A DNA stretch of 64,000 nucleotides. Source: Gaiellaceae bacterium (GTDB lineage Bacteria; Actinomycetota; Thermoleophilia; Gaiellales; Gaiellaceae). Under the pieces are notes generated by a model. It was not told the origin of the DNA, searched no databases, and was given only the letters and a program-made list of their open reading frames with translations. A program made the translations under genes and the position numbers. Positions within the stretch are counted from its first letter, which is position 1. Each line of letters opens with the position of its first letter. Below, piece by piece: positions 45,458 through 61,434 of this stretch. The stretch is taken from NCBI GenBank assembly GCA_035518115.1, contig DATIXY010000084.1:1865-65864 (forward strand). Reading direction: 5' to 3'.

Positions 45458-46249
45458 TCACTGCGCGAGCGGGAACGGCTTCTTGGCGAGCGCGGCCAGG
45501 ACCTGCGAGGTGACCCAGACCGGCGTCGTGGCATAGCTCGCCGAGTAGCGGTAGCTGCCGTCGGGCCGCCGCAGCCGCGCGAGATAGGCGAACGCGGCGC
45601 GCGGCGGCGTCCGCCCCGCGGCGACGAGGCCCTGGATCGACCACGCCGTCGACTGCGCGTCCGAGCCGCGGCCCTGCGTCAGCTCGAACCCGCCGTCGCG
45701 CCCCTCGAAGCCGAGGAGGAAGGAGACCGCCCGCGCGACGGGGCGCCCGGTGACGTGTGCGACACGGAACATCTCGAGCGCCGCAGCCGTGTCGTTCGAG
45801 TCCGGCTGGCCGCCTGCGTTCCACGCGAAGCCGCCGTTTCTCGACTGCCGCGCGAGCACGTACCGCGTGGTCGCCGCCGGCGAGCGGCCGAGCGCAAGCA
45901 CCGACCAGATCGTCGAGTTCACCGTCTCGCCGATTCGCCCGTCCGGATGCTCGACCGCGGCGATCCGCGCCAGCAGCGCCTGCGGCACCACGCCGAGCGA
46001 CCGCTCGGCGAGCGCCGCGAGCGCAACGTCGGTCGTCGACTGGAGCGACGACTCCTGCGACTGCAGGTACTGCAGCGACCCGGGAGCTTCCGCGCCCGCC
46101 GCGCGCAGGCCGAGCACCGCCCACGCGGTAAGCGACGGATCGGCCGTCCCGCCCGGCTCCGCGAAGGCGCCGTTCGCCTGGTGGGCCTGCAGGAACTGCG
46201 CCGGCGAGACCGCGAGCGCGACCGCTGCGGCGAGCGCCGCTACGCCCAC
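45458..46249 (-). CDS. secreted prenyltransferase/squalene-cyclase-repeat (alpha/alpha toroid) protein
   Basis: The GTG at 46249 gives a signal-like VGVAALAAAVALAVSPAQ. Repeated motifs follow: ANGAFAEPGG, HPDGRIGE, RNGGFAWNAGGQPDSNDTAAAL, RDGGFELTQGRGSDAQSTAWSIQGL and PDGSYRYS, characteristic of terpenoid cyclase/prenyltransferase repeats. It is the last gene of the riboswitch operon. Confidence 0.7.
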   Translation of the reverse strand: MGVAALAAAVALAVSPAQFLQAHQANGAFAEPGGTADPSLTAWAVLGLRAAGAEAPGSLQYLQSQESSLQSTTDVALAALAERSLGVVPQALLARIAAVEHPDGRIGETVNSTIWSVLALGRSPAATTRYVLARQSRNGGFAWNAGGQPDSNDTAAALEMFRVAHVTGRPVARAVSFLLGFEGRDGGFELTQGRGSDAQSTAWSIQGLVAAGRTPPRAAFAYLARLRRPDGSYRYSASYATTPVWVTSQVLAALAKKPFPLAQ

Positions 46250-46896
46250 ACGACCTCGGTCCGCAGCCGGAGCCGGTACCGGTCGAGCAGCCGCCGCAGC
46301 TCGGGCCCCGCCGCAAGCGCGATCGCGACGTTGCCGGCGGCGTGCGCGACGTCGAACCAGAAGCCGCGCGCGAGCACGGCGATCAGGGACGGCAGCGTGT
46401 GCGGGAAGAAGCCCCACCACAGCCAGACGTCCATGCTCGCGCTGAACGCGAAGCCGAGCACCGCCGTCACGGCCGCAAGCGCGAAGCGGTTGCGGATGAA
46501 CGGCGCGACGACCGCGCCGATCGCGCCGCAGGCGCCCCACCCGAGCATCTGCTGCGGCGTCCAGATGCCCTGGCCGAGGAAGAAGTTCGAAGCAAACGCC
46601 GCGAGCGCCCCCGTGGCGGCCCCTGCACGCGCCCCGAGCGCGGCGCCCGCCACGACCGCGATCACAGTCACCGGCTGCACGCCCGGGATCGCCGCGAACA
46701 CGACCCGGCCCGCTGCGGCCGCTCCGGCGAGCGTCGCGACCAGCGCCAGCTCGCGCGTCGAGCCGCGATGCGACTCGAACCAGGCGACGCCGGCGGCAAG
46801 CAGCGCACCCGATCCGAGCAGCGTCGCGAGCGCTCCGTCCCTGACACCGAGCGCGGCGACGAGCAGCACGAACGCGACGACGAGCAGCCTACGCAC
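46240..46896 (-). CDS. ECF transporter S (substrate-specific) component-like membrane protein
   Basis: The GTG at 46896 gives a 218-aa protein with about 6 TMs. The G/A-rich helices (IPGVQPVTVIAVVAGAALGARAGAATGALAAFASNFFLGQGIWTPQQMLGWGACGAIG) resemble PF12822-type S components. Confidence 0.7.
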   Translation of the reverse strand: MRRLLVVAFVLLVAALGVRDGALATLLGSGALLAAGVAWFESHRGSTRELALVATLAGAAAAGRVVFAAIPGVQPVTVIAVVAGAALGARAGAATGALAAFASNFFLGQGIWTPQQMLGWGACGAIGAVVAPFIRNRFALAAVTAVLGFAFSASMDVWLWWGFFPHTLPSLIAVLARGFWFDVAHAAGNVAIALAAGPELRRLLDRYRLRLRTEVVWA

Positions 46897-48199
46897 GTAC
46901 CGGCTCCCGTAGCTCGAGCGAGACGATCCGGTCGGCAACCTCGTTCGCCCAGACCAGGTCGTGCGTGACGACCAGCGTTCCGCGGTCGGGCGCCGCAGCG
47001 CGCAACAGCCGGCGCAGCTCGTCCTTGCGCTCCGGGTCGACGCCGCGTGTCGGCTCGTCGAGCACCAGCAGCTCCGGCTCGGTCGCGAGCACCGCAGCGA
47101 GCGCGAGCCGCTCACGCTCGCCCGACGACAAGTCGCGGGGATGCCGGTCTTCCGTCCCGTCGAGCCCCACCTGCCCGAGAGCGCGCCGCGCCCGCGAAAC
47201 GTCGGCGCCGAGCGCGACCTCGTCGAGCACGCGCTCGGTGACGAGGTGGCGCCCCGGATCCTGCGCGAGGTAGCCGGCGGGCGCATGCTCGACCATCCCT
47301 TCGTCGGGCGCAAGCAGGCCGGCGGCGATCTTCGCGAGCGTCGTCTTCCCCGATCCGTTCGGGCCGGTCAGCGCAACGATCTCGCCGCGGCCAACCTCGA
47401 GCGAGGCGCCGGCCAGTGCGACGCGGTCGCCGTACGCGTGCCCGATCCCCCTGAGCCGGCAGGCGAAGACGGGCTGGTGCTCGGCGTACAGCGGGCGGTG
47501 CTCGCGCAGCCACGCAAGAGCCTCGCCGCGCGGCGCGTCGAGCACCAGCCGGCCACCGTCCATGAACAGGATCCGGTCGGCGCGCTCGACCGGTAGCGCC
47601 GGCCGCTGCTCGGAGAGCAGCACCGCGCAGTCGAGCGCGCTCACGGCGTCGAGGAACGCCTCGGCGCCGTCGGGATCGAGCTGCGACGTCGGCTCGTCGA
47701 GCAGCAGCAGCCGGGGCCGCAGCGCCAGCGCGGCAGCGAGCGCGACCCGCTGCAGCTCGCCGCCCGAGAGCTCGTGCACGGAGCGATCGGCGAGATGCGC
47801 CGCGCCGACGAGCTGCAGCGCGTCCTCGACGCGCGGCCAGATGCGCTCGGGCGGCGCGCCGATGTTCTCGAGACCGAAGGCGACCTCGTTCGCGACCTGC
47901 GACATCACGACCTGGTCCTCCGGATCCTGGAAGACGGAGGCGACGGTCCCGGCGAGCTCGGCAGGGCGCACCTCGCGCGTGTCCATGCCGCCGACCACCA
48001 CCCGCCCGGCGAACACCCCGCCGTGAAAGTGCGGCACGAGACCGGCGAGCGCGCGCAGGAGCGTCGACTTGCCGGAGCCCGACGGCCCCAGCACGACGAC
48101 GTGCTCCCCCTTGCGCAGCTCGAGCGAGACGTCGTCGAGGGCGGGTGGAGCACCTGCGGTGTACGCGAAGCGAAGGTGCTCGACGACCGCTAGAGCCAC
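46889..48199 (-). CDS. ECF transporter duplicated ATPase (EcfA1-EcfA2 fusion)
   Basis: Two complete NBDs: GPSGSGKST/LSGGELQR/LLLDEPTSQLD and GPNGSGKTT/LSSGERER/LVLDEPTRGVD. I chose the GTG at 48199. The NBD1 H-loop position reads SEQ instead of THD. Confidence 0.9.
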   Translation of the reverse strand: MALAVVEHLRFAYTAGAPPALDDVSLELRKGEHVVVLGPSGSGKSTLLRALAGLVPHFHGGVFAGRVVVGGMDTREVRPAELAGTVASVFQDPEDQVVMSQVANEVAFGLENIGAPPERIWPRVEDALQLVGAAHLADRSVHELSGGELQRVALAAALALRPRLLLLDEPTSQLDPDGAEAFLDAVSALDCAVLLSEQRPALPVERADRILFMDGGRLVLDAPRGEALAWLREHRPLYAEHQPVFACRLRGIGHAYGDRVALAGASLEVGRGEIVALTGPNGSGKTTLAKIAAGLLAPDEGMVEHAPAGYLAQDPGRHLVTERVLDEVALGADVSRARRALGQVGLDGTEDRHPRDLSSGERERLALAAVLATEPELLVLDEPTRGVDPERKDELRRLLRAAAPDRGTLVVTHDLVWANEVADRIVSLELREPVRA

Positions 48200-48876
48200 A
48201 GCGCACCCACGACGACGAGCGCGACGGCGCCGACCATCGCCAGGTAGTCGAGCCTGCTCCACGGCGGGCGTGGAGCACGCGTGCGGCCCGGACGCCCGTA
48301 ACCGCGCGCCTCCATGGCCTCGGCCAGGTCGAGGCCGCGCTCGAGCGAGCCCGCCAGCAGTGGAGACAGCAGCCTGACCGGCCCGAGCTCGACGTTCCTT
48401 CCGCGCAGCGCCATCCGCAGGTCGCGCACGTCGCGCTCGAGGAGCGGCACGAGCCTCGTCGCGAGCGCCGCCGCGAGGCTCGACCGGCGTGCCCAGCCGG
48501 AGGCGGCGAGCAGGCGGTCGTGATCGACCCGCAGCGCGTACACCGCGAAGGCGAGCCCGACCGCCGCCAGGCGCAGGCCCTGGAAGACCGCTCCGTGGAG
48601 CTCCTCACGTGTGACGTCGAGCTGCCCGAGGACCGGCACGGTCGGTCCGACCCACAGCTCGTGCGTTCCGATCGACTCGACGAACGGCGTCACGATCACG
48701 ACGAAGAGCGCACTGACGAGCGTGCCGACGAGGTACGGCCACCGGCGCTCGGCCGGGGCGCGGAGCGCCGCCGCGAGCAGCACCGCGCAGATCAGCGCCA
48801 CCGACAGCGTCTGCGTCGCGACCAGCGCCGCGACGACGGCCGCGGCGAGCAGCGCAGTCAGCGGAACCGCGCTCAT
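48190..48876 (-). CDS. ECF transporter transmembrane T component (EcfT/CbiQ family)
   Basis: The ATG at 48876 (ATGA overlap) gives a 228-aa multi-TM protein. It carries the conserved Arg-rich coupling region (ALATRLVPLLERDVRDLRMALRGRN...AEAMEARGY). Confidence 0.85.
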   Translation of the reverse strand: MSAVPLTALLAAAVVAALVATQTLSVALICAVLLAAALRAPAERRWPYLVGTLVSALFVVIVTPFVESIGTHELWVGPTVPVLGQLDVTREELHGAVFQGLRLAAVGLAFAVYALRVDHDRLLAASGWARRSSLAAALATRLVPLLERDVRDLRMALRGRNVELGPVRLLSPLLAGSLERGLDLAEAMEARGYGRPGRTRAPRPPWSRLDYLAMVGAVALVVVGALWL

Positions 48877-49520
48877 CCAGGCACCGCGTAGCGATAGCGG
48901 AAGGCGGACGGGTCGGCGGCGAGGCGGGCGGCGGCACGCAGCCCGAGCACCAACCGGACCGTGCTGCCCTCGCGCGTCGCGACGGCGCTCCCGGCAGGCG
49001 CGGCCGCCGAGACGACGATCGCGTTCGGCCCGCGCCCGACGATCGACTGCAGCTTGGCCACCGAAGGCCCGGAGCCGACGACGCGCGCGCCTGGCTTGGC
49101 CCACTCGAACCCGTGCCGGAACGGCTCGGGAAACGCCCCGACGACGACCGGGACACTGAGCCCGGAGCCCTTCCACGAGCGGTAGTCCCACCACTCGACG
49201 TCGCCGGGCTGCAGGTGGACCGCGGTCGCGCCTTCGTCCGCCTCGATGCCGTTCACGAAGTAGAGCCAATCGCGCTGGGCGGATGCGGAGCCGCTGACGC
49301 CGCCGATCGACTGCACGAACCGGCCGCCGTAGCGCGTGCTGACCTTCAGCTTCCGCTCGAGCGCCTGCATCGCGGTCAGCCCGGCCGGGACGCTGCCCGA
49401 ATAGAGGACCTGGGCCCCGCGGTCACGCGTCACCCACAAGGTCGCCGTTCCGTGCCCGCGCACCTCGCCGCCGCAGCCGGCGAGGACGAGCGCGAGCAGC
49501 GGAACCGCGAGCCATCTCAC
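48873..49520 (-). CDS. DUF4430 (transcobalamin-like C-terminal domain) lipoprotein
   Basis: The GTG at 49520 (GTGA overlap) gives VRWLAVPLLALVLAGCGG (lipobox LAGC). The DUF4430-like core follows: TAMQALER...GRFVQSIGGVSG....DWLYFVNG.EAD.GA....LQPGDVEWWDY. Confidence 0.8.
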   Translation of the reverse strand: MRWLAVPLLALVLAGCGGEVRGHGTATLWVTRDRGAQVLYSGSVPAGLTAMQALERKLKVSTRYGGRFVQSIGGVSGSASAQRDWLYFVNGIEADEGATAVHLQPGDVEWWDYRSWKGSGLSVPVVVGAFPEPFRHGFEWAKPGARVVGSGPSVAKLQSIVGRGPNAIVVSAAAPAGSAVATREGSTVRLVLGLRAAARLAADPSAFRYRYAVPG

Positions 49521-50110
49521 TTCAGCGCATTCGAACGGACGGCGCCGTCCGCAGTGGCGCGGACGAGCAGCCCCTTGTGCGCGCCGGGGCACACCTTCGT
49601 GTTTGCCTGCGCAGTCATCGTCCGCTTCGATCCGATGTGCAGGACGAGGTTCGTGACCGACGCCGGCTTCCCGTTGTCGTCGAACGCCTGGGCGACGTAG
49701 CAGCCGCCGGTCGCCGCATTCAGCTGCAGCGTCGGCGGGCCGCCGTTCGGGCCGAAGGTCGCGTAGTACCAGAGGACATCGTCACCGTCCTTCAGGACGA
49801 CCTTGTCCGCACCGACCGGCGGCGAGGCGTTGTCGACCTTGAACACCCACCCGCTCGAGCCCGAGCCGGGATAGCGGCCGATCTGGTCGACATACGGGCC
49901 GAAGCCCGTGACGGTGACGTGGTAGTAGAACTCGCCCAGGATCGACGCCTGTTCGAGCGCATCCAGGGCACTCGTCGCGGTGACGGTCACCGGGGCCGGG
50001 GCGAAGATCGTCCGTGTCTTGCCCTCGACACGCACCTTGACGGTCGCCGCAAGAGCGGTCGCAGGCAGCGCGAGCGCCAGGACGACGAGCAGAACAACAC
50101 GCTTGGCCAC
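49517..50110 (-). CDS. secreted DUF4430 (transcobalamin-like C-terminal domain) protein
   Basis: The GTG at 50110 lies 5 nt after GGAAGGAGG. The signal peptide is VAKRVVLLVVLALALPATALAA. The core is SALDALEQA...GPYVDQIGRYPGSGSSGWVFKVDNASPPVGADKVVLKDGDDVLWYY, with the GW-containing DUF4430 signature. First gene after the riboswitch. Confidence 0.8.
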   Translation of the reverse strand: MAKRVVLLVVLALALPATALAATVKVRVEGKTRTIFAPAPVTVTATSALDALEQASILGEFYYHVTVTGFGPYVDQIGRYPGSGSSGWVFKVDNASPPVGADKVVLKDGDDVLWYYATFGPNGGPPTLQLNAATGGCYVAQAFDDNGKPASVTNLVLHIGSKRTMTAQANTKVCPGAHKGLLVRATADGAVRSNALK

Positions 50111-50143
50111 GAATCCTCCTTCCACGAGGGGCTCGGGTTATGG

Positions 50144-50295
50144 AGGGCGACCGGCAGGTCTTCTGACTCGGGGCTCCCCCTCCACCGCCTTCCCGGGCGC
50201 CCGGCCCAGTGACGTCGTGGTGGAGGGCATCTCCCCTCACAGCGGCGGGACCGTCCCGGACTCGCACCGGGTTCCCTCACCGCTCGCCCCTTCTC
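50144..50295 (-). promoter_or_regulatory. cobalamin (adenosylcobalamin/B12) riboswitch
   Basis: The minus strand reads GAGGGAAcccGGTGcGAgTCCgggaCgGtCCCGCCgCTGT ... CACTGGgccgggcgcccGGGAAGGC ... AGTCAGAAGACCTGCC (B12 box, 50168-50153). This is the conserved core of the cobalamin riboswitch family. A P1-like pairing joins GGGGCGA (50290-84) with TCGCCCT (50150-44). Downstream CCCTCC can pair with the GGAGG SD of the first gene. Confidence 0.9.
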
Positions 50296-50342
50296 TGATG
50301 GTCGCGAATCTAGCACGGGCCGCGTCCGTACACTGACCGGCG

Positions 50343-50564
50343 GTGGAACGCAGCGAGGTCACCGACCGGCAGCTCGAGGCCCTGCTCCAGCGGCTCGACC
50401 GGATCGCCGACGAGCTCGCGCGGCTGAACGCCCGCGACGAGCGCCGCGAGGAGCTGACCGTGATCGCCCACGAGTTGCGGAACCTGAACGAGTCGCTCCA
50501 GGCGCTCGCGTATGCCGCGCTCGGGCAGCAGGGCCCGCAGGTCCGCCGGCGCCGCACCGGCTAG
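50343..50564 (+). CDS. hypothetical small coiled-coil protein (73 aa), probably leaderless
   Basis: GTG start at 50343 with no SD. TACACT (50329-34) ends 8 nt upstream. Third codon positions are strongly GC-biased, as in real genes here. The heptad-like sequence is QLEALLQRLDRIADELARLNARDERREELTVIAHELRNLNESLQAL. Confidence 0.45.
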   Translation: MERSEVTDRQLEALLQRLDRIADELARLNARDERREELTVIAHELRNLNESLQALAYAALGQQGPQVRRRRTG

Positions 50565-50570
50565 GCGCAG

Positions 50571-51968
50571 CTACGAGCCGAGGCGGAAGATGTCGAGCAC
50601 GCCACTCGTGGCGTGGTCGTTCGCGTTCCCCTCGGCGACCGCCACGCGGCCGTCGGCGACGATCGGGCTCTGCCAGTGCACCTCGGAGCCGATCGTGAGC
50701 GACGCCACCTGCTTGCCGCTCGCGGCCTCGTACACGTTGACCGCCCCGGACGTCGCGACGAACACGAGGCTCCCGGCGATTGCCGGGGACGTGCCGCTGG
50801 CACCGTTCGACCAGGCCGACCGAAGCCGCCCGCCGGCGAGCCGCCACGCCTGCGTCCCGGACTGGTCGCTGACGATCACCCAGGTCCCCTGCCAGACGGC
50901 CGGCTCGCTGAAGAGCGGGGCGCTGCCGGGGGTGGGCACCGTCTGGAGCTCGCCGCCCAGCTTCGCGTTCGGGCCGGGCAGGCGATCGAGCGCGAGTAGC
51001 CGCAGCTCACCGTCCTTCCCGCCCTGGACCGCATACCCGCCGGAGAGGAGCGCGGGGCTCGTCGAGCCGAGGTCGAGGTCGGCGTCGTTGAGGTGCTGCT
51101 GGTCGGCGGGCGTCCAGTGGCGAAGCAGCCTCGACGCGTCGGGTGAAAGGACGAGGACGCTGTCCCCCCAGTTGGTGCTGCCGTTCCAGGGCGCGTTGCC
51201 GGTGGCGACCACGAGGTCGCCCGTCGCAGGATCGACCGCTGCGCCGTTCCGCGACCAGATGGCGGAGTCGCTGGCGGAGCACGTGCTCGGGGTGATCAGC
51301 TCGTGGCGATCGGAGCAGAGCGAGTTCCAGACGTGCTGGATCGCGCCGGTGCGCTCTGACAGCGTCACCACGTGGCCCTGGTACGGCGGTGCGTCGCCGA
51401 TGTACCCGCCCGTCGTCACGAGCACCATCCCGCGCGAGACGTTGAGCGAAGAGGTCAGCTTCTCGTGCGTCGGGTCGCGGGTGACCGACGTCGTCCAGAG
51501 GACCTTGCCGTCGGAGATGCGGAGCTTCCGGATCTTGCCGTCGGGCGCCGCAGCGTAGATCGCCGTGCGATCGGTCGACGCGACCGGCGTCGCGTTGGTG
51601 ATCTGCGCGGTCCGGGCGAGCGACGAGTAGCTGGGCGGAACGTAGCGCCAGAGGACCTTCCCGTTCGCGGCGTTGATCGCCTCCGTCTTTCCGTACGTCG
51701 TCGTCACGAAGAACACGTCGTGCGTGGTACCGAACACCTTCACGCCGTGCAGGTAGATCGGAGACGAATCGACCGTCCCGTCGAGATGGACCTGCTGCCG
51801 CGTCATGTGCGAGACGTTGGCGGCGGTGAGCGTTCCGGCGGGCCCGACACCGTGGCGGGCCGTGTCGAACCCGAACCGCGCCCAGTCGGTCCCGCCCCCG
51901 GCCACCGACAGCGCGGTCGCCGGCAGCACGGCCACCGCAACGACGACCGCCGCGAGCGCGGCTCTCAA
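50571..51968 (-). CDS. secreted PQQ-like beta-propeller repeat protein
   Basis: The TTG at 51968 overlaps the upstream stop (TTGA). The signal-like N-terminus is LRAALAAVVVAVAVLPATALSVAGG. Repeated GKVLW-type blades follow (NGKVLWRY, DGKVLWTT, ...). The rest of the 977-aa track ORF is an out-of-frame artefact. Confidence 0.8.
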   Translation of the reverse strand: MRAALAAVVVAVAVLPATALSVAGGGTDWARFGFDTARHGVGPAGTLTAANVSHMTRQQVHLDGTVDSSPIYLHGVKVFGTTHDVFFVTTTYGKTEAINAANGKVLWRYVPPSYSSLARTAQITNATPVASTDRTAIYAAAPDGKIRKLRISDGKVLWTTSVTRDPTHEKLTSSLNVSRGMVLVTTGGYIGDAPPYQGHVVTLSERTGAIQHVWNSLCSDRHELITPSTCSASDSAIWSRNGAAVDPATGDLVVATGNAPWNGSTNWGDSVLVLSPDASRLLRHWTPADQQHLNDADLDLGSTSPALLSGGYAVQGGKDGELRLLALDRLPGPNAKLGGELQTVPTPGSAPLFSEPAVWQGTWVIVSDQSGTQAWRLAGGRLRSAWSNGASGTSPAIAGSLVFVATSGAVNVYEAASGKQVASLTIGSEVHWQSPIVADGRVAVAEGNANDHATSGVLDIFRLGS

Positions 51969-54707: not shown

Positions 54708-56600
54708 TCAGGTTGCCGCGAGCTCCTCGTCCATCACCGACTGGGGGAACGCGACGATCAGGACCTCGCAGGGCGCGTTGCGCAGGACGTAGTCCACCGT
54801 CGGCGAGAAGAACCGCGACTGGCGGCGCCAGCGGGGCGACGAGCCCAGGACGATCAGGTCGGCGTTCACGTCGCGCGCGTGCGACACGATCGCGGCACCG
54901 ATCGACCGTGCGCGGACGGTCGCTCCGTCGACGGTGACGCCGTGGTCGGCCCCGAGCAGCTTCGCCTCGGTGAGGGATTCGTCGGCCCGGTCCTGGTCCT
55001 GCTCGAGCGGCGCATCGATCGAGTTCGAGAGGTCGACGCGGATCACGTGCAGCGCCTCGACCGACGCGCCGTGCTCCTCCGCGAGCTTGACCGCGGTCGC
55101 CACCATCTCCTCGCCGATGATCCCGAGCTTCATCGGCACCAGGATCCGGTGCACGTCGAGCGCCGGCGTGACCGGCAGCTCGTCGGGCGCGCGGACGCGC
55201 TCGAGTAGGCCTTCGCCGTGCGACAGCCTGACGCTCACGAAGACCACCAGCCCGAGCGCGAGCCAGATCGGGCCGGCGTACCGGGCCGCGGGGTGGGTCG
55301 CCAGCGCCACGATCCAGACCACGAACGTCGCGATCGCCCCGACGATCGCCGGCAGCGGCAGCTCGACGCCGCGGATCGCGATGTTGAACGGCGCGCGAAA
55401 CGGCCGCGGCAGCCCGGGCTCGTCGATGCGCAGCTTGATCACCGCGAGCTGCGCAGCCGTGAAGGCGAGCAGCACGCCGAACGAGAACAGGCTGGCGAGG
55501 CCGGCGACGTCGTTCTTGACGAACGACGTGGCGATCACGAAGCCCGACGCGACGATCGCCACCGAGACGATCGCGATCGGCGAGACGTGCGCGCGCCGGC
55601 TGAGCCGCCCGAAGCCGCTCGGAAGCTGCCCGTGCTCGCCGAGCGAGTAGGCGAGGCGCGAGAAGCCGGAGATCGACGTGACGACCGCGGCGAGCAGGAT
55701 CAGTGCGCCGGTGATCCCGACATAGCCCCGCAGCACGTCCGCGACGCTCGACGGCAGCTCGGCGCCGATCCGGTCGGCGACGCCGAGCAGCGGTGCGTGC
55801 TCCCACTTCGTGCCGAGCTCGGTGTGCGGGCCCGGGAACGCCGACAGGGCGACGATCGCGATCGCGACGTACAGCGTGATCACCGTCACGAGGCCGCCGA
55901 ACACGGAACGCGGAAGGTCGACGCCGGGGCTGCGCGCCTCCTCGGCGAGGTTGGCGACCGTCTCGAGGCCCGTGAACGCGAGCATCGCCAGGGGGATCGA
56001 GAAGGCGATCGCGTGCCACGACGGGTCGGTGCCGATCGACGTGCCCTGCGTCAGCGCGTGGGGCGACCAGACGAGGGCGAACCCGAGCACGACGAGCAGT
56101 ACCTGCGTGAGCAGGTCAAGGGCGGGGATCAGGATCCCGACGCCGTACAGCGACGGCCGGCGCACCAGGCGCACCATCGCCACGCCGACGATCACGACCA
56201 CCGCGACGACCACGTCCCACGGGTTCCGGTCGAGCGCGCCGACGTGCAGCGCGCCCGCGAGGTAATGCGGCAGGAAGAGCGCCGAGAGGGCGATCACGAT
56301 CAGGTAGTCGAGGAAGAGCGCCCAGCCGGTGATGAACCCGGCGAGGTCGTTGGAGGCCCGGCGCACGAAGGTCGCCGCACCGCCCGTCTCGGGGAGCGCC
56401 GCGGTGCCTTCGGCGTAGGAGAGCGAGACGACGAGGAAGAGCAGCCCGACGCCGAGCAGGACGACTGGCGTGAAGCCGAGCGCGTTCGCCGCGATGACGC
56501 CGAGCGCGAAGTAGATCGACGACGCGACCTCGCCGTAGACGACCGAGAACAGGGCACGTGCGTCGAGCTCGCGCGTGAAGCCGGGGAGCTTGCGTGCCAT
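54708..56600 (-). CDS. APC superfamily permease fused to a C-terminal universal stress protein (USP) domain
   Basis: 630 aa. The APC core (ALFSVVYGEVASSIYFALG...GGAATFVRRA) covers about 12 TMs. It is followed by a USP fold (ILVPMKLG...LHVIRV...ADLIVLGSSPR....RFFSPTVDYVLRNAPCEVLIV). Confidence 0.9.
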   Translation of the reverse strand: MARKLPGFTRELDARALFSVVYGEVASSIYFALGVIAANALGFTPVVLLGVGLLFLVVSLSYAEGTAALPETGGAATFVRRASNDLAGFITGWALFLDYLIVIALSALFLPHYLAGALHVGALDRNPWDVVVAVVVIVGVAMVRLVRRPSLYGVGILIPALDLLTQVLLVVLGFALVWSPHALTQGTSIGTDPSWHAIAFSIPLAMLAFTGLETVANLAEEARSPGVDLPRSVFGGLVTVITLYVAIAIVALSAFPGPHTELGTKWEHAPLLGVADRIGAELPSSVADVLRGYVGITGALILLAAVVTSISGFSRLAYSLGEHGQLPSGFGRLSRRAHVSPIAIVSVAIVASGFVIATSFVKNDVAGLASLFSFGVLLAFTAAQLAVIKLRIDEPGLPRPFRAPFNIAIRGVELPLPAIVGAIATFVVWIVALATHPAARYAGPIWLALGLVVFVSVRLSHGEGLLERVRAPDELPVTPALDVHRILVPMKLGIIGEEMVATAVKLAEEHGASVEALHVIRVDLSNSIDAPLEQDQDRADESLTEAKLLGADHGVTVDGATVRARSIGAAIVSHARDVNADLIVLGSSPRWRRQSRFFSPTVDYVLRNAPCEVLIVAFPQSVMDEELAAT

Positions 56601-56765
56601 CTAGACCTTCCGCCGTGCGAGGTAGAGGCGGCCGGCGCCGGCCGCGATGAACAGTGCGCCGAGGAGGATGCCGACCCCGCCGCCGCGCGCGATCGTGATC
56701 GCGAGCATCGTGACGCCGAGCCCGACCATCAGGACTGCCAGCACCTCCACCGCCCTGATGCGCAT
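56601..56765 (-). CDS. 54-aa two-TM membrane micro-protein
   Basis: MRIRAVEVLAVLMVGLGVTMLAITIARGGGVGILLGALFIAAGAGRLYLARRKV. The ATG shares its A with the upstream TGA (TGATG), and its TAG is immediately followed by the next ATG (TAGATG). It is the tail of a spurious 1017-aa track ORF. Confidence 0.55.
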   Translation of the reverse strand: MRIRAVEVLAVLMVGLGVTMLAITIARGGGVGILLGALFIAAGAGRLYLARRKV

Positions 56766-58642
56766 CACGCCGCCTTCCGGCCCGCCGCGACCATCACGCG
56801 GCACGGTGCGTGCTTGAGCACGTAGTCGACGGTATGGCCGAAGATCGCACGATGGCGGCCGCGCGGGGCGCCGAGCACGATGATCTCCGAGACGCGGCGC
56901 TCCGCCTCGTCGACGATCGCGCGGCCGGCGTGCCGCGCGCGCACGACGCGCTCGACCACCCGCACGCCGTACGGAGCCGCGATCGCGCGAGCCTCGTCGA
57001 GCAGGCGGTCGGCCTCGGCGAGCTCTGCCGCCAGGTCGGCGTCGAGAGGAAGTTCGAGCGGGACGACGATCACCCGGAGAAGAACGATACGACCGGCGCG
57101 TTCGGTCGCCAGCCGCGCCGCGACCTCGACCGCGTCGTGCGACTCGGGCCCGGTCACGATCGGCACGAGGATCGACCGGTACTCGAGCGCAAGCGCCGGC
57201 CCGAGCGGGACCGGCGCGCGCGCGGTCACCGTCAGAGGGAGATGCGCGTGGAGGCGGTAGAGCGGGTAGAAGACGAAGCCGACCGCGAGCCATGCGAAGC
57301 CCGCGTAACGCGTCGCCGGATCCTGGATGACCACCACGAGCCAGGCAATGGCGGTGCCGAGCCCACCGAAGATCGCGAACAGGGGCCATGAGATGCCGCC
57401 GATCGTGATGTTCGGGTGGGCGCGCCACTGGCTCTCGCCGTCGCGATCCCGGATGCGCAGCGCGATCACCGAGGCCGCGGCGATCGTGAACGAGAGCATC
57501 GCCCCGAACGCGTACATGCGGCCGAGAAAGTCGACCTGGCCGGAGATCAGGAAGATCGTCGGCCCGATCGCGCCGAACACGACCAGCGCGAGCCACGGCG
57601 TCTTCAGCTTCGGGTGCAACCGCCGGAACACCTCCGGCAGCTGGCGATGGCTGGACATCGCGTACGTGATTCGCGATGCGCCGATCACGCCGGCGTTCGT
57701 CGCAATGAAGAGAATCGTCGCGGCGAGGATGCCGACGTACACCTTTGCGGTCGAGAGCGTGAAGCCGTGCAGGCCGAGGTTCTCGACGAGCCCGAGCACC
57801 GGGTCGTTCTTGAACCCTTCCGGTGGGGCCTGACCGAGCCTCGTCACGTACTCCCCGCCCACGTGCACGACCGGCATCGCCGAGAGCGCGATGAACGGGA
57901 GCGTGAAGTAGATCGCGAACACGGCGATCGCGACCCACGAGATCGCACGGGGGATCGACCGCACCGGGTCGCGCGCCTCCTCGGCGAGGTTGGAGACCGT
58001 CTCGATCCCCGTGTACGCGATCATCGCGACCGGGATCGCGAGCAGGAAGTTGCTCCACGTCGGCGCCACGCCCAGGTGCACGTTGTGGACGAGCACGTGC
58101 GGGCTGAAGATCAGGAAGAACCCGAGCGTGACGAGCAGCAGCTGCGTGGCGAAGTCGATGACGGCGAGGAAGATGTTGAGCCCCGCCGCCTCCTTGATCC
58201 CGATGATGTTGATCCCGACGAGCAGCCAGGTCAGCGTGATCCCGACGACGATGTCCCAGGGGTTCGTGCGCAGCGGCTCCCAGAAGATCGAGAGGTAGTG
58301 CGGCACGAAGATCACCGAGATCGCGACGGTGATCACGTAGTTGAGCATCTGCGCCCAGGCCGCCCCGAAGGAGACGAGCTCGTTGAACGCGTGGCGGGCA
58401 AAGCTCGACGAGCCGCCCGCCTCGGGGAAGCGAACGGTGCCCTCGGCGTACGTCGCGGCGATCGCCGCGAAGATGATCCCGCTGATGATGAAGACGATCG
58501 GGGTGAGGCCGAGCGCGATGCCGGCGGTCAGCCCGAGCGCGTAGTAGATCGACGAGCCGACGTTGCCGTACGCGGTGGAGAAGAGCGCGGGTGCGCCCAG
58601 CACCCGTTCGAGGCCATGTGCTTGTCGGCGCCGCCTGGGCAC
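56765..58642 (-). CDS. APC superfamily permease fused to a C-terminal USP domain (paralog of 54708-56600)
   Basis: 625 aa with ALFSTAYGNVGSSIYYALG...GGSSSFARHA. The C-terminal USP is ILVPIVTG...RVIVVP...SEIIVLGAPRGR.RAIFGHTVDYVLKHAPCRVMV. Confidence 0.9.
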   Translation of the reverse strand: MPRRRRQAHGLERVLGAPALFSTAYGNVGSSIYYALGLTAGIALGLTPIVFIISGIIFAAIAATYAEGTVRFPEAGGSSSFARHAFNELVSFGAAWAQMLNYVITVAISVIFVPHYLSIFWEPLRTNPWDIVVGITLTWLLVGINIIGIKEAAGLNIFLAVIDFATQLLLVTLGFFLIFSPHVLVHNVHLGVAPTWSNFLLAIPVAMIAYTGIETVSNLAEEARDPVRSIPRAISWVAIAVFAIYFTLPFIALSAMPVVHVGGEYVTRLGQAPPEGFKNDPVLGLVENLGLHGFTLSTAKVYVGILAATILFIATNAGVIGASRITYAMSSHRQLPEVFRRLHPKLKTPWLALVVFGAIGPTIFLISGQVDFLGRMYAFGAMLSFTIAAASVIALRIRDRDGESQWRAHPNITIGGISWPLFAIFGGLGTAIAWLVVVIQDPATRYAGFAWLAVGFVFYPLYRLHAHLPLTVTARAPVPLGPALALEYRSILVPIVTGPESHDAVEVAARLATERAGRIVLLRVIVVPLELPLDADLAAELAEADRLLDEARAIAAPYGVRVVERVVRARHAGRAIVDEAERRVSEIIVLGAPRGRHRAIFGHTVDYVLKHAPCRVMVAAGRKAA

Positions 58643-58674
58643 GGCCAGAGATGCTAGGGGCTGGCGCGGAGGAA

Positions 58675-58702
58675 GGTGCCTGGCACCCAGGTGCCGGGCA
58701 CC
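58675..58702. repeat. tandem pair of 13-bp palindromes
   Basis: GGTGCCtGGCACC (58675-87), then ca, then GGTGCCgGGCACC (58690-702), in the 66-bp gap between the kimA-like stop and the APC-USP start. Confidence 0.5.
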
Positions 58703-58708
58703 GGACGC

Positions 58709-60988
58709 CTACCGGAAGAGCTGGTAGGGGACGCTCGAGAGGATCACGTGCGGCTCGAAGAGGAGCAGCCGCTTCACGTAGATCGCCCGCTGGTTGTGCA
58801 GGACGCGGGACCACCCGCGCACGACGATCTCCGGCATCACGACGTTGACCACGGTCTCCGGGTCGGCCGTCAGCTCGCGGATGTACGCCAGGAGCGGCGT
58901 CCCGACGTCGCGGTACGGGGCGTCGCTCAGGTCGAGCGGCATCATGACGCCCGTCTGCGTCCAGCGGTCGGCGAGCTGGTCGGCCTCGGCGCTGTCGAAC
59001 GCGAACGACACGGCGCGGGTGTCCTCGATCCCCAGGGAGTCGGCGTAGGTCAGCGCGCGCAGCGAGCCGGCGTGGATGTCCGAGATCAGGACGCGCACGG
59101 CGAGACGGCTCGGGGTGACGCCCTCCGGCCCGCGCCGCTGCGACACCACCGGGACGTCGGCGATCACCGTCCCCGGCTCGGAGAGGAGCCGCAGCTTGAG
59201 CCGGAACGAGGTGCGCGTCGCGGCCCGCAGCAGCGAGCGGCCGCGGAACTGCTCCGGGACGACCACGGTGACGAAGTCGGACTCGCTGCGAGGAAGGCTC
59301 CACACCTCCTCGAGCACCGCCTGCGTCCGGCCTTCGTCGGTCGCGAGCCGCTCCAGCTTCGGCCCCGACGGCGCGTAGTCGAACCAGCGCGGCCTGATCG
59401 CCGAATCGGTGTGCCTGCCCGGCGTGAGCACCGCGCGGATCGACTGGTTGTCTGCGATCTGGCGCGAGTACCAGAGCGCGCCCTCGGTGGCGACGTCGAG
59501 TGACTCGACCCACAGGAGCACGTGATTCGTCGCCGGACCGGCGGCGCGGATGGCACCCACCCCGGCCGCCAGCCGGCGGGCGAAGCGCCGGTAGTGGCGG
59601 TTGATCCCGACGAACGCGAGCACGAACAGCGGGATCGCGACGATCACGAGCCACGCACCCTCGGTGAACTTCGTCCAGATCACGACCAGCGTGACGAGCC
59701 CCGTGGCCGCCGACCCGACACCATTGAGGGCGGCGCGGTAGCGCCAGCCGGGGTCGCGCGTCCGCAGCCAGTAACGGACCATCCCGGCCTGCGACAGCGT
59801 GAACGCGCTGAACACCCCGATCACGTAGAGGTGGATCAGCGAGTCGACGCTCGCGTTGTAGATGATCAGCAGTGTCGACGCGATCGCGGCCAGCACGATG
59901 ATCCCGTTCGAGAACACGAGCCGGTCGCCGAGGTTCGTGAACTGGCGGGCGAAGAAGCGGTCACGCGCGAGCAGCGCCGCGAGCCGGGGGAAGCCCTGGA
60001 ACGACGTGTTGGCAGCAAGCACCAGGACGGCGAGCGTGAGGATCTGGACCGCCCAGTACATGAAGGCGCTCCACGAGCCCGAGGGGAAGACGCCTCGGGC
60101 CAGCTGCGAGAGCACCGACGGCGTGCCCGAGTCGGCGGGAATCGCGTTCATGTGCACGGCGAGCCACGACACGCCGACGAACATCACGATCGCGATCGTC
60201 CCGAGCGTCGCCAGCGTCTTCGCGGCGTTGCGCCCGTGCGGCCGGCGGAAAGCGTTGACGCCGTTAGCGATCGCCTCGACTCCCGTGAGCGCCGTCGATC
60301 CGGACGCGAACGCGCGCAGGACCACGAACAGCGTGACGGCGCCGGTGCCGGCCGCGATCGGGTGCGGGACGACCGCCTGCGGGCAGCCGGAGGTCGCGCA
60401 CTTCGTCACTCCCGTTCCGATCAGCACGAGGATCGCCGTCACGAACGCGTACGTCGGCAGGGCGAAGAGCACGCCCGCCTCCTTGACCCCGCGCAGGTTC
60501 GCGAGCGTGATCAGCACGACGCAGATCAGCGACAGGCCGAGCTCGTGGCCGCGCAGCGCGCTCACCGCCGAAGTGAGGGCGAGAACCCCGGCGGCGACGG
60601 AGACGGCGACCGTGAGGATGTAGTCGGTCAAGAGCGCCGCCGCCGCGACCAGGCTCGGCACGCGGCCCAGGTTCTCCTTGGCGACGATGTAGGCGCCGCC
60701 CGACGTCTCGTAGGCAAGCACCGTCTGCCGGTACGAGGCGATGACGATCGCGAGCAGCAGCGCGATGCCGAGCGAGATCGGGAACACGAGGTGCGCGGCA
60801 CCGGCCGAGGCGCCGACCAGGACCACGAGAGCCGCCTCGGTCGCGTAGGCGACGGACGAGAGCGGATCCGACGCGAAGATCGGGAGCGCGAGCCACTTCG
60901 GGAGCAGCGTCTCCTCCATCTGGTCGGACGCCATCGCAGGCCCGACGACGAAGCGACGGAGGCGCGGCCTGCCTGCCTGGGTTGTCAC
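58709..60988 (-). CDS. KimA (YdaO)-like APC-superfamily potassium/proton symporter with large cytoplasmic C-terminal domain
   Basis: 759 aa. LPIFASDPLSSVAYATEAAL, SYRQTVLAYETSGGAYIVAKENLG, LLTDYILTVAVSVAAG and ANTSFQGFPRLAALLARDRF match conserved blocks of Bacillus KimA as I recall them. About 300 aa of soluble C-terminus follow. The GTG start overlaps the upstream stop (GTGA). Confidence 0.8.
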   Translation of the reverse strand: MTTQAGRPRLRRFVVGPAMASDQMEETLLPKWLALPIFASDPLSSVAYATEAALVVLVGASAGAAHLVFPISLGIALLLAIVIASYRQTVLAYETSGGAYIVAKENLGRVPSLVAAAALLTDYILTVAVSVAAGVLALTSAVSALRGHELGLSLICVVLITLANLRGVKEAGVLFALPTYAFVTAILVLIGTGVTKCATSGCPQAVVPHPIAAGTGAVTLFVVLRAFASGSTALTGVEAIANGVNAFRRPHGRNAAKTLATLGTIAIVMFVGVSWLAVHMNAIPADSGTPSVLSQLARGVFPSGSWSAFMYWAVQILTLAVLVLAANTSFQGFPRLAALLARDRFFARQFTNLGDRLVFSNGIIVLAAIASTLLIIYNASVDSLIHLYVIGVFSAFTLSQAGMVRYWLRTRDPGWRYRAALNGVGSAATGLVTLVVIWTKFTEGAWLVIVAIPLFVLAFVGINRHYRRFARRLAAGVGAIRAAGPATNHVLLWVESLDVATEGALWYSRQIADNQSIRAVLTPGRHTDSAIRPRWFDYAPSGPKLERLATDEGRTQAVLEEVWSLPRSESDFVTVVVPEQFRGRSLLRAATRTSFRLKLRLLSEPGTVIADVPVVSQRRGPEGVTPSRLAVRVLISDIHAGSLRALTYADSLGIEDTRAVSFAFDSAEADQLADRWTQTGVMMPLDLSDAPYRDVGTPLLAYIRELTADPETVVNVVMPEIVVRGWSRVLHNQRAIYVKRLLLFEPHVILSSVPYQLFR

Positions 60989-61434
60989 GTCGTCTTTCGT
61001 CGCTCGAGTGCCGTCAGCGCACGCTCCGCTTCACGGCGGGCAGCGTCCGCGCGGGCGCGGTCGTAGAGCGGGCTGTGGGAGTCGGTGACGAGCCGGTCGG
61101 CGAGCAGGACGCCGCGCGGCAGCACGTGCACGTCGAGGTCGGCGAGCCGGCTCGCGAGCGCGAGCAACTGGGAACGCGCCGAGCGCACCGCGACGCGGTT
61201 GAGCGGCGAGGCGCCGGGGAGCCGCGTCCCGTCCGCCTCGTGCACGACGTCCGTCAGCCCGCGCGACACGCCGAGGCGGTACTCGGGAGCGACCAGCTCG
61301 CGCACGCGCCACGCGAGCCGCGGCGACGGCAGCACCGAGGCGATCAGCTCCTCGTCCGCGGCGCGCCGCTCTGCCTGGAGCGCGCGGCGCTTCTGGAGCT
61401 CGCGCACCGGTTGCAGGACGCGAATCGAGACCAT
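60985..61434 (-). CDS. hypothetical protein (149 aa, no recognisable family)
   Basis: ATG start at 61434. The strong GC3 bias is consistent with coding. It is translationally coupled (GTGA) to the kimA-like gene. No SD was seen upstream. Confidence 0.55.
   Translation of the reverse strand: MVSIRVLQPVRELQKRRALQAERRAADEELIASVLPSPRLAWRVRELVAPEYRLGVSRGLTDVVHEADGTRLPGASPLNRVAVRSARSQLLALASRLADLDVHVLPRGVLLADRLVTDSHSPLYDRARADAARREAERALTALERRKTT

Follow-up and report, generated by a model that had tools for sequence, protein, structure and literature searches.

A Cobalamin Riboswitch-Preceded ECF Transporter Operon with Two DUF4430 Proteins and an Alpha/Alpha Toroid in a Gaiellaceae Bacterium: a Likely Corrinoid Importer

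INTRODUCTION

The eukaryotic carriers of vitamin B12 (cobalamin), transcobalamin, intrinsic factor, and haptocorrin, sandwich the vitamin between an alpha/alpha toroid and a beta domain, as stated in a passage of Burroughs, Balaji, Iyer, and Aravind (2007; PMC1796856). In the passages of that paper devoted to them, a transcobalamin-like SLBB clade was defined in bacteria and archaea, and its secreted (DUF4430) members were described in operons with toroids, second paralogous SLBB genes, and CbiO-like and CbiQ-like genes, together with beta-propeller and Ig fusions and with SLBB-toroid fusions in Bacillus and Desulfotomaculum. The proteins were predicted there to scavenge "B12 or its precursors," and a bacterial origin of animal transcobalamin was proposed. 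Here, we analyze an operon of this kind in a 64,000-nucleotide stretch of DNA from a soil actinobacterium of the Gaiellaceae (GenBank assembly GCA_035518115.1, contig DATIXY010000084.1, positions 1,865 to 65,864 of the forward strand; this whole stretch is termed the window herein), in which a cobalamin riboswitch precedes genes for two DUF4430 proteins (P1 and P2), an energy-coupling factor (ECF) transporter (P3 to P5), and a toroid protein (P6).

A gene set of similar composition has been studied in Lactobacillus sakei. The genes lsa1836-1840 encode an S component, a fused A-A' ATPase, a T component, and exported transcobalamin-beta-like and transcobalamin-alpha/GGTase-like proteins; the model proposed for the exported pair is a split heterodimer from which the ECF S component receives a tetrapyrrole, and heme was docked into this alpha/beta heterodimer (Verplaetse et al. 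2019). Both this study and that of Burroughs et al. arrived, independently of the present analysis, at the model that we favor below. Matched by description, Lsa1836-1840 has the same parts list as the window operon (S, fused A-A', T, beta-like, and alpha-like proteins). The window differs in having two DUF4430 paralogues and a cobalamin riboswitch, whereas the L. sakei paper mentions no riboswitch.

The closest experimentally characterized S component is CbrT of Lactobacillus delbrueckii, which was shown to transport cobalamin and cobinamide (Santos et al. 2018, PMC5997447). A passage of that paper credits Rodionov et al. (2009) with having predicted in silico that ECF-CbrT transports cobalamin. 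The link of CbrT to B12 had been inferred from genomic context, the gene cbrS adjoins cbrT, and CbrT homologues span an identity range of 25-60% (PMC5997447). In L. delbrueckii, CbrT uses an ECF module in common with seven other S components (group II), whereas the window S component has its own T component and fused A-A' ATPase and is accompanied by three extracytoplasmic proteins. In Bacteroides, BtuG and BtuH are surface B12-binding lipoproteins that are controlled by riboswitches and feed a membrane transporter; they differ from the accessory proteins of the window in having unrelated folds, belonging to a Gram-negative outer membrane, and feeding BtuB rather than an ECF transporter.

Several features set the window apart from these precedents. 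The fusions in Burroughs et al. join SLBB and toroid, whereas the window encodes the two apart, and the fusion partner of the toroid in relatives is the S component; in the passages concerned, that paper has neither the ECF S-component concept nor the riboswitch link. The beta domain of transcobalamin, intrinsic factor, and haptocorrin belongs, like P1 and P2, to the DUF4430 Pfam family, and their alpha domain is, like P6, an alpha/alpha toroid. These carriers are single soluble polypeptides, alpha then beta, whereas the window encodes separate proteins and P6 is not a PF01122 protein. The operon is not a new system but a further example of a kind predicted in 2007 to 2009, partly studied since, and biochemically under-studied. 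An earlier note on this DNA, made from sequence alone, had stated that no characterized bacterial B12 scavenging system of this composition was known to its author; that claim fails against the composition and interpretation given in the passages of Burroughs et al. and the deletion mutant of Verplaetse et al. What we add is the assignment of the S component to the CbrT family, consistent riboswitch control in the bacterial loci examined, a large family of fusions of S component and toroid with an exact split junction, and archaeal fusions linked to BtuFCD. The idea itself is not new; what gives the locus its value is the comparative evidence, together with its use as a clean, riboswitch-marked experimental candidate, in a field (B12 uptake in Gram-positives and other single-membrane prokaryotes) that is still poorly mapped.

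RESULTS AND DISCUSSION

A cobalamin riboswitch and six overlapping genes

In a cmscan search, the minus strand at 50136..50299 matched the cobalamin riboswitch aptamer (RF00174) over the whole model (positions 1-189 of 189) with 96.3 bits and E = 9.5e-23, the gathering score being 31.5 bits; no other Rfam match in the 64-kb window was above its gathering score. The B12 box, AGTCAGAAGACCTGCC, was read directly from the sequence at 50168-50153. The aptamer is followed by a putative expression platform (50108..50150, minus strand), proposed from sequence reading and a predicted fold: CCCTCC (50147-50142) could pair with the Shine-Dalgarno sequence GGAAGGAGGA (50123-50114), located just 5' of the GTG start codon of P1 at 50110, and in the minimum-free-energy fold GCCCUCC is paired with GGAGG. 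An intrinsic terminator was looked for and not found. Because CCCTCC can pair with the Shine-Dalgarno sequence next to the GTG start codon, control of P1 is probably translational, via sequestration of the Shine-Dalgarno sequence.

Six open reading frames (ORFs) follow on the minus strand, with overlaps of 4 to 10 nucleotides (nt) at their junctions. Downstream of the genes for the two DUF4430 proteins, P3 (48190..48876) is predicted to be EcfT, the CbiQ-type transmembrane coupling subunit (PF02361, E = 1.2e-8; its TIGR02454 match is below the cut-off of that family), and P4 (46889..48199) a fused EcfA-EcfA' double ATPase with two ABC_tran stretches (ECF_ATPase_1, E = 3.5e-83; ECF_ATPase_2, E = 5.6e-78; the cbiO subfamily was matched above cut-off). 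EcfT, two EcfA ATPase domains, and an S component (P5, 46240..46896) are thus encoded together, as in a dedicated (group I) ECF transporter. The earlier note had read this region as a riboswitch (placed at 50295-50144, minus strand) with six coupled genes after it that encode a riboswitch-controlled ECF importer, including EcfT and a fused double ATPase, plus extracytoplasmic proteins; the RF00174 match, identical gene coordinates, and the domain matches bear this out. No genes for B12-dependent enzymes or for corrinoid salvage or biosynthesis were found elsewhere in the 64-kb window.

The S component is CbrT-like

Against the Protein Data Bank (PDB), P5 had a single phmmer match, even at E ≤ 10, namely chain A of 6FNP, which is L. 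delbrueckii CbrT (E = 2.5e-12). The two proteins are 36% identical over 147 amino acids (aa) (BLASTP, E = 1e-15) and have the motifs IPxVQPVT, SNxFLGxGIWT, and FDxxHAAGN in common. P5 scored 27 bits with DUF6580, which is exactly the cut-off, and CbrT itself is a member of the Pfam family ECF_trnsprt. With an identity inside the quoted 25-60% range, P5 is predicted to be an S component of the CbrT family and to transport corrinoids; the earlier note, to which it did not obviously resemble CbrT, was wrong on this point. The profile scan showed that P5 is not of the CbiM/CbiN type. A literature search found nothing on DUF6580 or on the combination of riboswitch, prenyltransferase, and ECF transporter.

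At the N terminus of P5 (46760-46896), its CbrT-like core is preceded by about 45 extra residues that include one or two hydrophobic segments, and the fusion relatives described below have one extra N-terminal helix comparable to this segment. The extension suggests either a noncanonical S-component topology or a start codon further downstream.

Two DUF4430 proteins with a transcobalamin-like beta-grasp

P1 (49517..50110, minus strand; 197 aa) is a predicted secreted protein with a signal peptide, a hydrophobic N-terminal segment (residues 5-23), and a C-terminal beta-rich extension, and P2 (48873..49520, minus strand; 215 aa) is a predicted lipoprotein with the lipobox LVLAGC. The P2 start overlaps the P1 stop codon as GTGA. 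Both match PF14478 (DUF4430) above its cut-off of 23.8 bits (P1, 42.8 bits, E = 7.3e-11; P2, 46.5 bits, E = 5.2e-12). They are 33% identical over 55 aa (E = 2e-4), and P2 appears to be distantly paralogous to P1, from which it differs in its C-terminal domain.

A profile of 23 P1 orthologues aligned with residues 349-420 of human transcobalamin (E = 0.0035); the human sequence used in all profile comparisons was checked against PDB 7QBF and 2BB5. The Pfam matches and this alignment support both the two DUF4430 proteins, one of them a lipoprotein, and their homology to the transcobalamin beta domain, as read in the earlier note, and P1 and P2 are assigned on sequence grounds to the transcobalamin-like beta-grasp of the SLBB clade. 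A passage of Burroughs et al. (PMC1796856) names a beta-hairpin insert after the beta-grasp helix as the hallmark of this clade. In the AlphaFold2 model of an archaeal protein in which DUF4430 is fused to a toroid (P0261; see below), a helix (130-141) is followed by strands 145-150 and 153-159.

P6 is a predicted alpha/alpha toroid, remote from transcobalamin

P6 (45458..46249, minus strand; 263 aa) is predicted to be exported or N-terminally anchored. Its AlphaFold2 model (mean predicted local distance difference test score [pLDDT], 93.8) has 13 helices, and Foldseek returned 79 PDB matches at E ≤ 0.001, the top ones with template modeling (TM) scores of 0.70-0.75. The structural neighbors are drimenyl diphosphate synthase, squalene-hopene cyclases, and prenyltransferase beta subunits; the match to the drimenyl diphosphate synthase 8ZG0, a class II terpene cyclase, had a TM score of 0.70 and E = 1e-8, and phmmer matched 7XQ4 with E = 3e-11. 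The profile matches of P6 itself were below cut-off (SQHop_cyclase_C, 24 bits; Prenyltrans, 18 bits), and all 25 P6 relatives checked matched both families. Model and superposition bear out the alpha/alpha toroid of the earlier note and place P6, as modeled, in the prenyltransferase/terpene cyclase/TED superfamily.

A specific relationship to transcobalamin was a different matter. PF01122 did not match P6 and matched only 1 of the 25 relatives (E = 0.004), and transcobalamin, intrinsic factor, and haptocorrin were absent from the top 50 Foldseek PDB matches of both the P6 model and the archaeal fusion model, which were terpene cyclases and prenyltransferases, joined for the fusion by A2M/TED proteins. 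In hhalign, the P6 toroid profile aligned with human transcobalamin over 181 columns with a probability of 3% (E = 0.015); the two sequences are collinear in this alignment, in which the motifs DTAA, STxxxxQ, and Q..DG coincide. The transcobalamin alpha domain would thus be only a remote relative of the P6 toroid, and the transcobalamin-type fold put forward in the earlier note is left without support by these searches.

The toroid family carries a D-x-D/N-D-T-A motif at the position of the DxDDTA motif of class II cyclases, and P6 and the class II cyclases both have QW-like repeats. In the clade of the window, the central Asp is replaced by Asn: DSNDTA (P6 residues 150-155, window 45800-45820) was found in 42 of 42 close relatives. 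The archaeal fusions have an intact DYDDTA or DFDDTA (44 of 47), and human transcobalamin has VDTAAM at the equivalent position (hhalign). Because of the Asp-to-Asn change, the extracytoplasmic location, and the single-domain architecture, an enzyme activity of P6 is disfavored. Class II terpene cyclase was likewise discarded as an annotation of P6 (no intact DxDD motif, a single domain of 263 aa, and an export or anchor segment), as was membership in the NCBIfam family SCO2321_fam, with which the toroid scored just 34-124 bits against a cut-off of 300.

P5 and P6 correspond to a split S-component-toroid fusion

An exhaustive HMMER search of 1.84 billion cluster representatives yielded 1,808 toroid relatives, and domain architectures were derived from the best 150. 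In about 30 of these, a single polypeptide has a P5-like S component N-terminally and a toroid C-terminally, and one combines DUF4430 with a toroid; the family of S-component-toroid fusions has more than 3,600 members. Among the nearest relatives of P6, the main fusion partner of the toroid is therefore the S component and not, as in the pairing of the earlier note, DUF4430. In the fusions, the end of the S domain is followed by a linker transmembrane helix and the start of the toroid, and both the P5 C terminus (RYRLRLRTEVVWA) and the P6 N terminus (a hydrophobic stretch, then FLQAHQANGAF) align exactly with this junction. Because of this exact alignment, P5 and P6 are considered a split form of the fusion protein. 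Their genes overlap by 10 nt (46240-46249) in different reading frames. The split is not a sequencing frameshift, since it is kept across related Gaiellales loci.

The junction predicts that the toroid lies across the membrane from the C terminus of the S domain, that is, outside if its termini are cytoplasmic, as is established for S components. Many stand-alone toroid relatives have a signal peptide, a toroid, a linker, and a C-terminal transmembrane anchor, or SLH or Ig-like domains.

Fusions of DUF4430 and toroid exist in nature as well, which supports pairing the two: about 100 clusters were found in Archaeoglobi (at least 120 clusters are listed, most with both domains), next to genes for BtuFCD, CbiZ, and CobS. 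They have a C-terminal transmembrane anchor, which in P0261 follows a PGF motif, and some are named PGF-pre-PGF. In Ferroglobus placidus (L083), the fusion lies in a BtuC-BtuD-CbiZ-propeller-fusion-BtuF cluster, and in Archaeoglobus profundus (L084) among cbiZ, cobS, cobD, btuF, and btuC. This genomic context links the DUF4430-toroid pair to corrinoid uptake and salvage independently of ECF transporters and riboswitches. PKD domains or fusions to PQQ-type propellers (P0302) occur in some members of the archaeal family.

The module is conserved behind cobalamin riboswitches

At least 595 confirmed relatives were identified when genomes were scanned with a diverse toroid alignment, and the context of the best 80 was analyzed in species-level genomes, all of them metagenome-assembled genomes of Gaiellales, Gaiellaceae, or Thermoleophilia. 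The full order riboswitch-P1-P2-P3-P4-P5-P6 was found in 67 of the 80 loci (tblastn and nhmmer), with P6 identities of 50-80% and P2 identities of 40-60%, and in all 67 an element homologous to the riboswitch lies upstream of P1 (nhmmer). Of the other 13 loci, 12 are interrupted at contig ends and one (L060) is ambiguous. Because the whole order is kept in 67 of 80 genomes, the arrangement is not due to chance; the earlier note had named conservation of the gene neighborhood as a check of its reading.

Outside the Gaiellales group, the module likewise stands behind RF00174 matches (81-90 bits in L085-L087, 108 bits in L088, and 120 bits in L090). In L085, L086, and L087, the riboswitch is followed by two further genes (unknowns in L085 and L086; a gene with a weak DUF4430 match and one unknown in L087) and then by DUF4430, CbiQ, the double ATPase, and an S-component-toroid fusion. 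The order in L088 is riboswitch, PQQ_2 propeller, DUF4430, CbiQ, double ATPase, S component, and toroid, and that in L090 is riboswitch, toroid, DUF4430/SLH, DUF4430, CbiQ, double ATPase, toroid/SLH, and S component. A short contig (L089) holds CbiQ, the double ATPase, the S component, and a toroid/Big_13 gene.

The L086 locus (Thermoleophilaceae) has two cobalamin riboswitches in tandem units (1417-1575 and 2567-2758); the first precedes a gene with weak DUF4430 and faint HemolysinCabind matches, and the second precedes the ECF operon.

A likely corrinoid importer and its alternatives

Because RF00174 precedes the module, P5 is CbrT-like, and the fusions and published models converge, we consider it likely that the operon encodes a dedicated ECF importer (group I, CbrT type) that takes up cobalamin or other corrinoids, has three extracytoplasmic accessory proteins, and is repressed by B12 via the riboswitch. 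When intracellular cobalamin is low, the riboswitch would leave the ribosome-binding site of P1 free, and the six translationally coupled genes would be expressed. The two DUF4430 proteins, one lipid-anchored and one secreted or wall-associated, would capture scarce corrinoid outside the membrane. At the membrane, beside the S component, the toroid P6 could supply the second half of a binding site or a docking platform; in many relatives, toroid and S component form one polypeptide, joined by an extra transmembrane helix. The corrinoid would then be handed to the CbrT-like S component P5, and EcfT and the fused EcfA-A' ATPase would make P5 topple and set the corrinoid free in the cytoplasm. 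We infer the identity of the ligand, the order of hand-over, the transcobalamin-like sandwich considered below, and the sequestration of the Shine-Dalgarno sequence.

Several observations weigh against this picture or parts of it. The predicted hairpin that would sequester the Shine-Dalgarno sequence is no more stable than shuffled sequence (z = −1.06), and neither structure nor profile searches found the toroid to be specifically transcobalamin-like. The natural fusion P0261, modeled as a stand-in for a complex of P6 and DUF4430, has a disordered interdomain linker and a predicted TM score (pTM) of 0.55, so that its domain orientation is uninformative and a fixed transcobalamin-like sandwich is unsupported. 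In the only genetic study of a system with this gene content, deletion of lsa1836-1840 impaired the accumulation of heme, and complementation restored it, which makes the known phenotype one of heme and not of B12; moreover, the ECF transporters described so far need no extracytoplasmic binding proteins (Verplaetse et al. 2019). Our literature search found no biochemical study of corrinoid binding by accessory proteins of this kind.

As a tentative extension, the toroid might be an obligate extracytoplasmic partner of the CbrT-type S component, to which a seventh transmembrane helix links it in the fusions, and, together with DUF4430, might transiently enclose B12 in a transcobalamin-like sandwich from which the S component is loaded. 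If so, this would be the first ECF class shown to depend on extracytoplasmic substrate-capture proteins, and animal transcobalamin and intrinsic factor would have a precursor in prokaryotes that is split over separate proteins. ECF transporters are textbook importers without need for an extracytoplasmic binding protein, and a demonstrated hand-over would revise that paradigm, settle the question of heme versus B12 in L. sakei, and test the bacterial origin of the animal B12 carriers. The operon type is also widespread, with thousands of metagenomic relatives, in the several bacterial lineages examined and in Archaeoglobi.

The same transporter and ligand could do without a sandwich, which we regard as possible though rather unlikely: the toroid would cap the S component on the extracytoplasmic side or serve it for docking, and the DUF4430 proteins would bind corrinoids independently, with high affinity and at the surface, and hand them over to the toroid-S unit or straight to the S component. 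The predominance of S-component-toroid over DUF4430-toroid fusions (about 30 to 1 among the best 150 representatives; the former kind counts more than 3,600 proteins in all), the flexible linker in the fusion model, and a toroid nearer to terpene cyclases and TED domains than to transcobalamin all fit this alternative. It is opposed by the sizeable DUF4430-toroid family in corrinoid uptake and salvage clusters, by the fusions that Burroughs et al. report, in the passage cited above, from Bacillus and Desulfotomaculum too, and by the alignment of toroid and transcobalamin alpha domain, which is weak yet collinear, motifs included.

A substrate other than finished cobalamin, namely a corrinoid precursor or remodeling substrate (cobinamide or cobamides of the pseudo-B12 type) or cobalt, is improbable, and this alternative overlaps with the corrinoid importer proposed above more than it excludes it. 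Cobalt transporters, too, are controlled by B12 riboswitches. Cobinamide is also transported by CbrT (PMC5997447), the archaeal fusions adjoin the cobinamide-salvage gene cbiZ as well as cobS and cobD, and "B12 or its precursors" is the wording in the relevant passage of Burroughs et al. (PMC1796856); yet P5 does not belong to the CbiM/CbiN type, and the 64-kb window has no salvage or biosynthesis genes.

Import of heme or another noncorrin tetrapyrrole, as for Lsa1836-1840, is very improbable. It would agree with the complemented deletion phenotype and the docking of heme into the modeled heterodimer in L. sakei (Verplaetse et al. 2019); against it, a cobalamin riboswitch was present at every bacterial locus examined that includes the upstream region, the sole solved relative of the S component is the cobalamin- and cobinamide-specific CbrT, and the archaeal fusions are grouped with BtuFCD, CbiZ, and CobS. 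The L. sakei S component lacks the residues that its authors consider cobalamin binding, and the L. sakei system may thus be a diverged branch (Verplaetse et al. 2019).

Hardly credible is a fortuitous presence in the operon of P6 as an enzyme (terpene cyclase or prenyltransferase-like) acting on an envelope lipid. In its favor, P6 matches class II terpene cyclases best in both sequence and structure, and the motif stands at the cyclase position and is intact in the archaeal fusions; against it, the window clade has Asn for the central Asp, P6 is a single toroid that covers only part of the matched drimenyl diphosphate synthase chains (514-539 aa), the protein is placed outside the membrane by export or anchoring or is joined to the S component or DUF4430, and, unlike in class II cyclases and prenyltransferases, it is embedded in a B12 transport operon whose linkage to riboswitch and ECF genes is kept across lineages.

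Neighboring genes in the window

A secreted beta-propeller of the PQQ_2 type is encoded directly upstream of the riboswitch (50571-51968, minus strand). It was dropped as a member of the system, being outside the riboswitch-controlled unit and adjacent in just 26 related loci, and no similarity was detectable between it and the propellers of the B12 loci of L088 and the Archaeoglobi. Of those loci, L088 has its propeller gene first after the riboswitch, whereas in L083 and L084 a propeller gene overlaps the gene for the DUF4430-toroid fusion at its start. Between the window propeller gene and the riboswitch lies a 73-aa ORF (50343-50564, plus strand) that is divergent from the operon; its product, which had no Pfam match, is rich in charged and leucine residues and possibly forms a coiled coil, and the gene was also called in the close relative L001.

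Farther away, three tandem paralogous genes for amino acid permeases, two of them with a C-terminal universal stress protein domain, occupy 54708-61030 on the minus strand. The segment 25941-37216 is an ordinary sugar utilization region with a GH4 glycosidase gene, genes for ATP-binding cassette (ABC) permease components, and three ROK-family genes, one of which encodes an N-terminal MarR-like helix-turn-helix domain.

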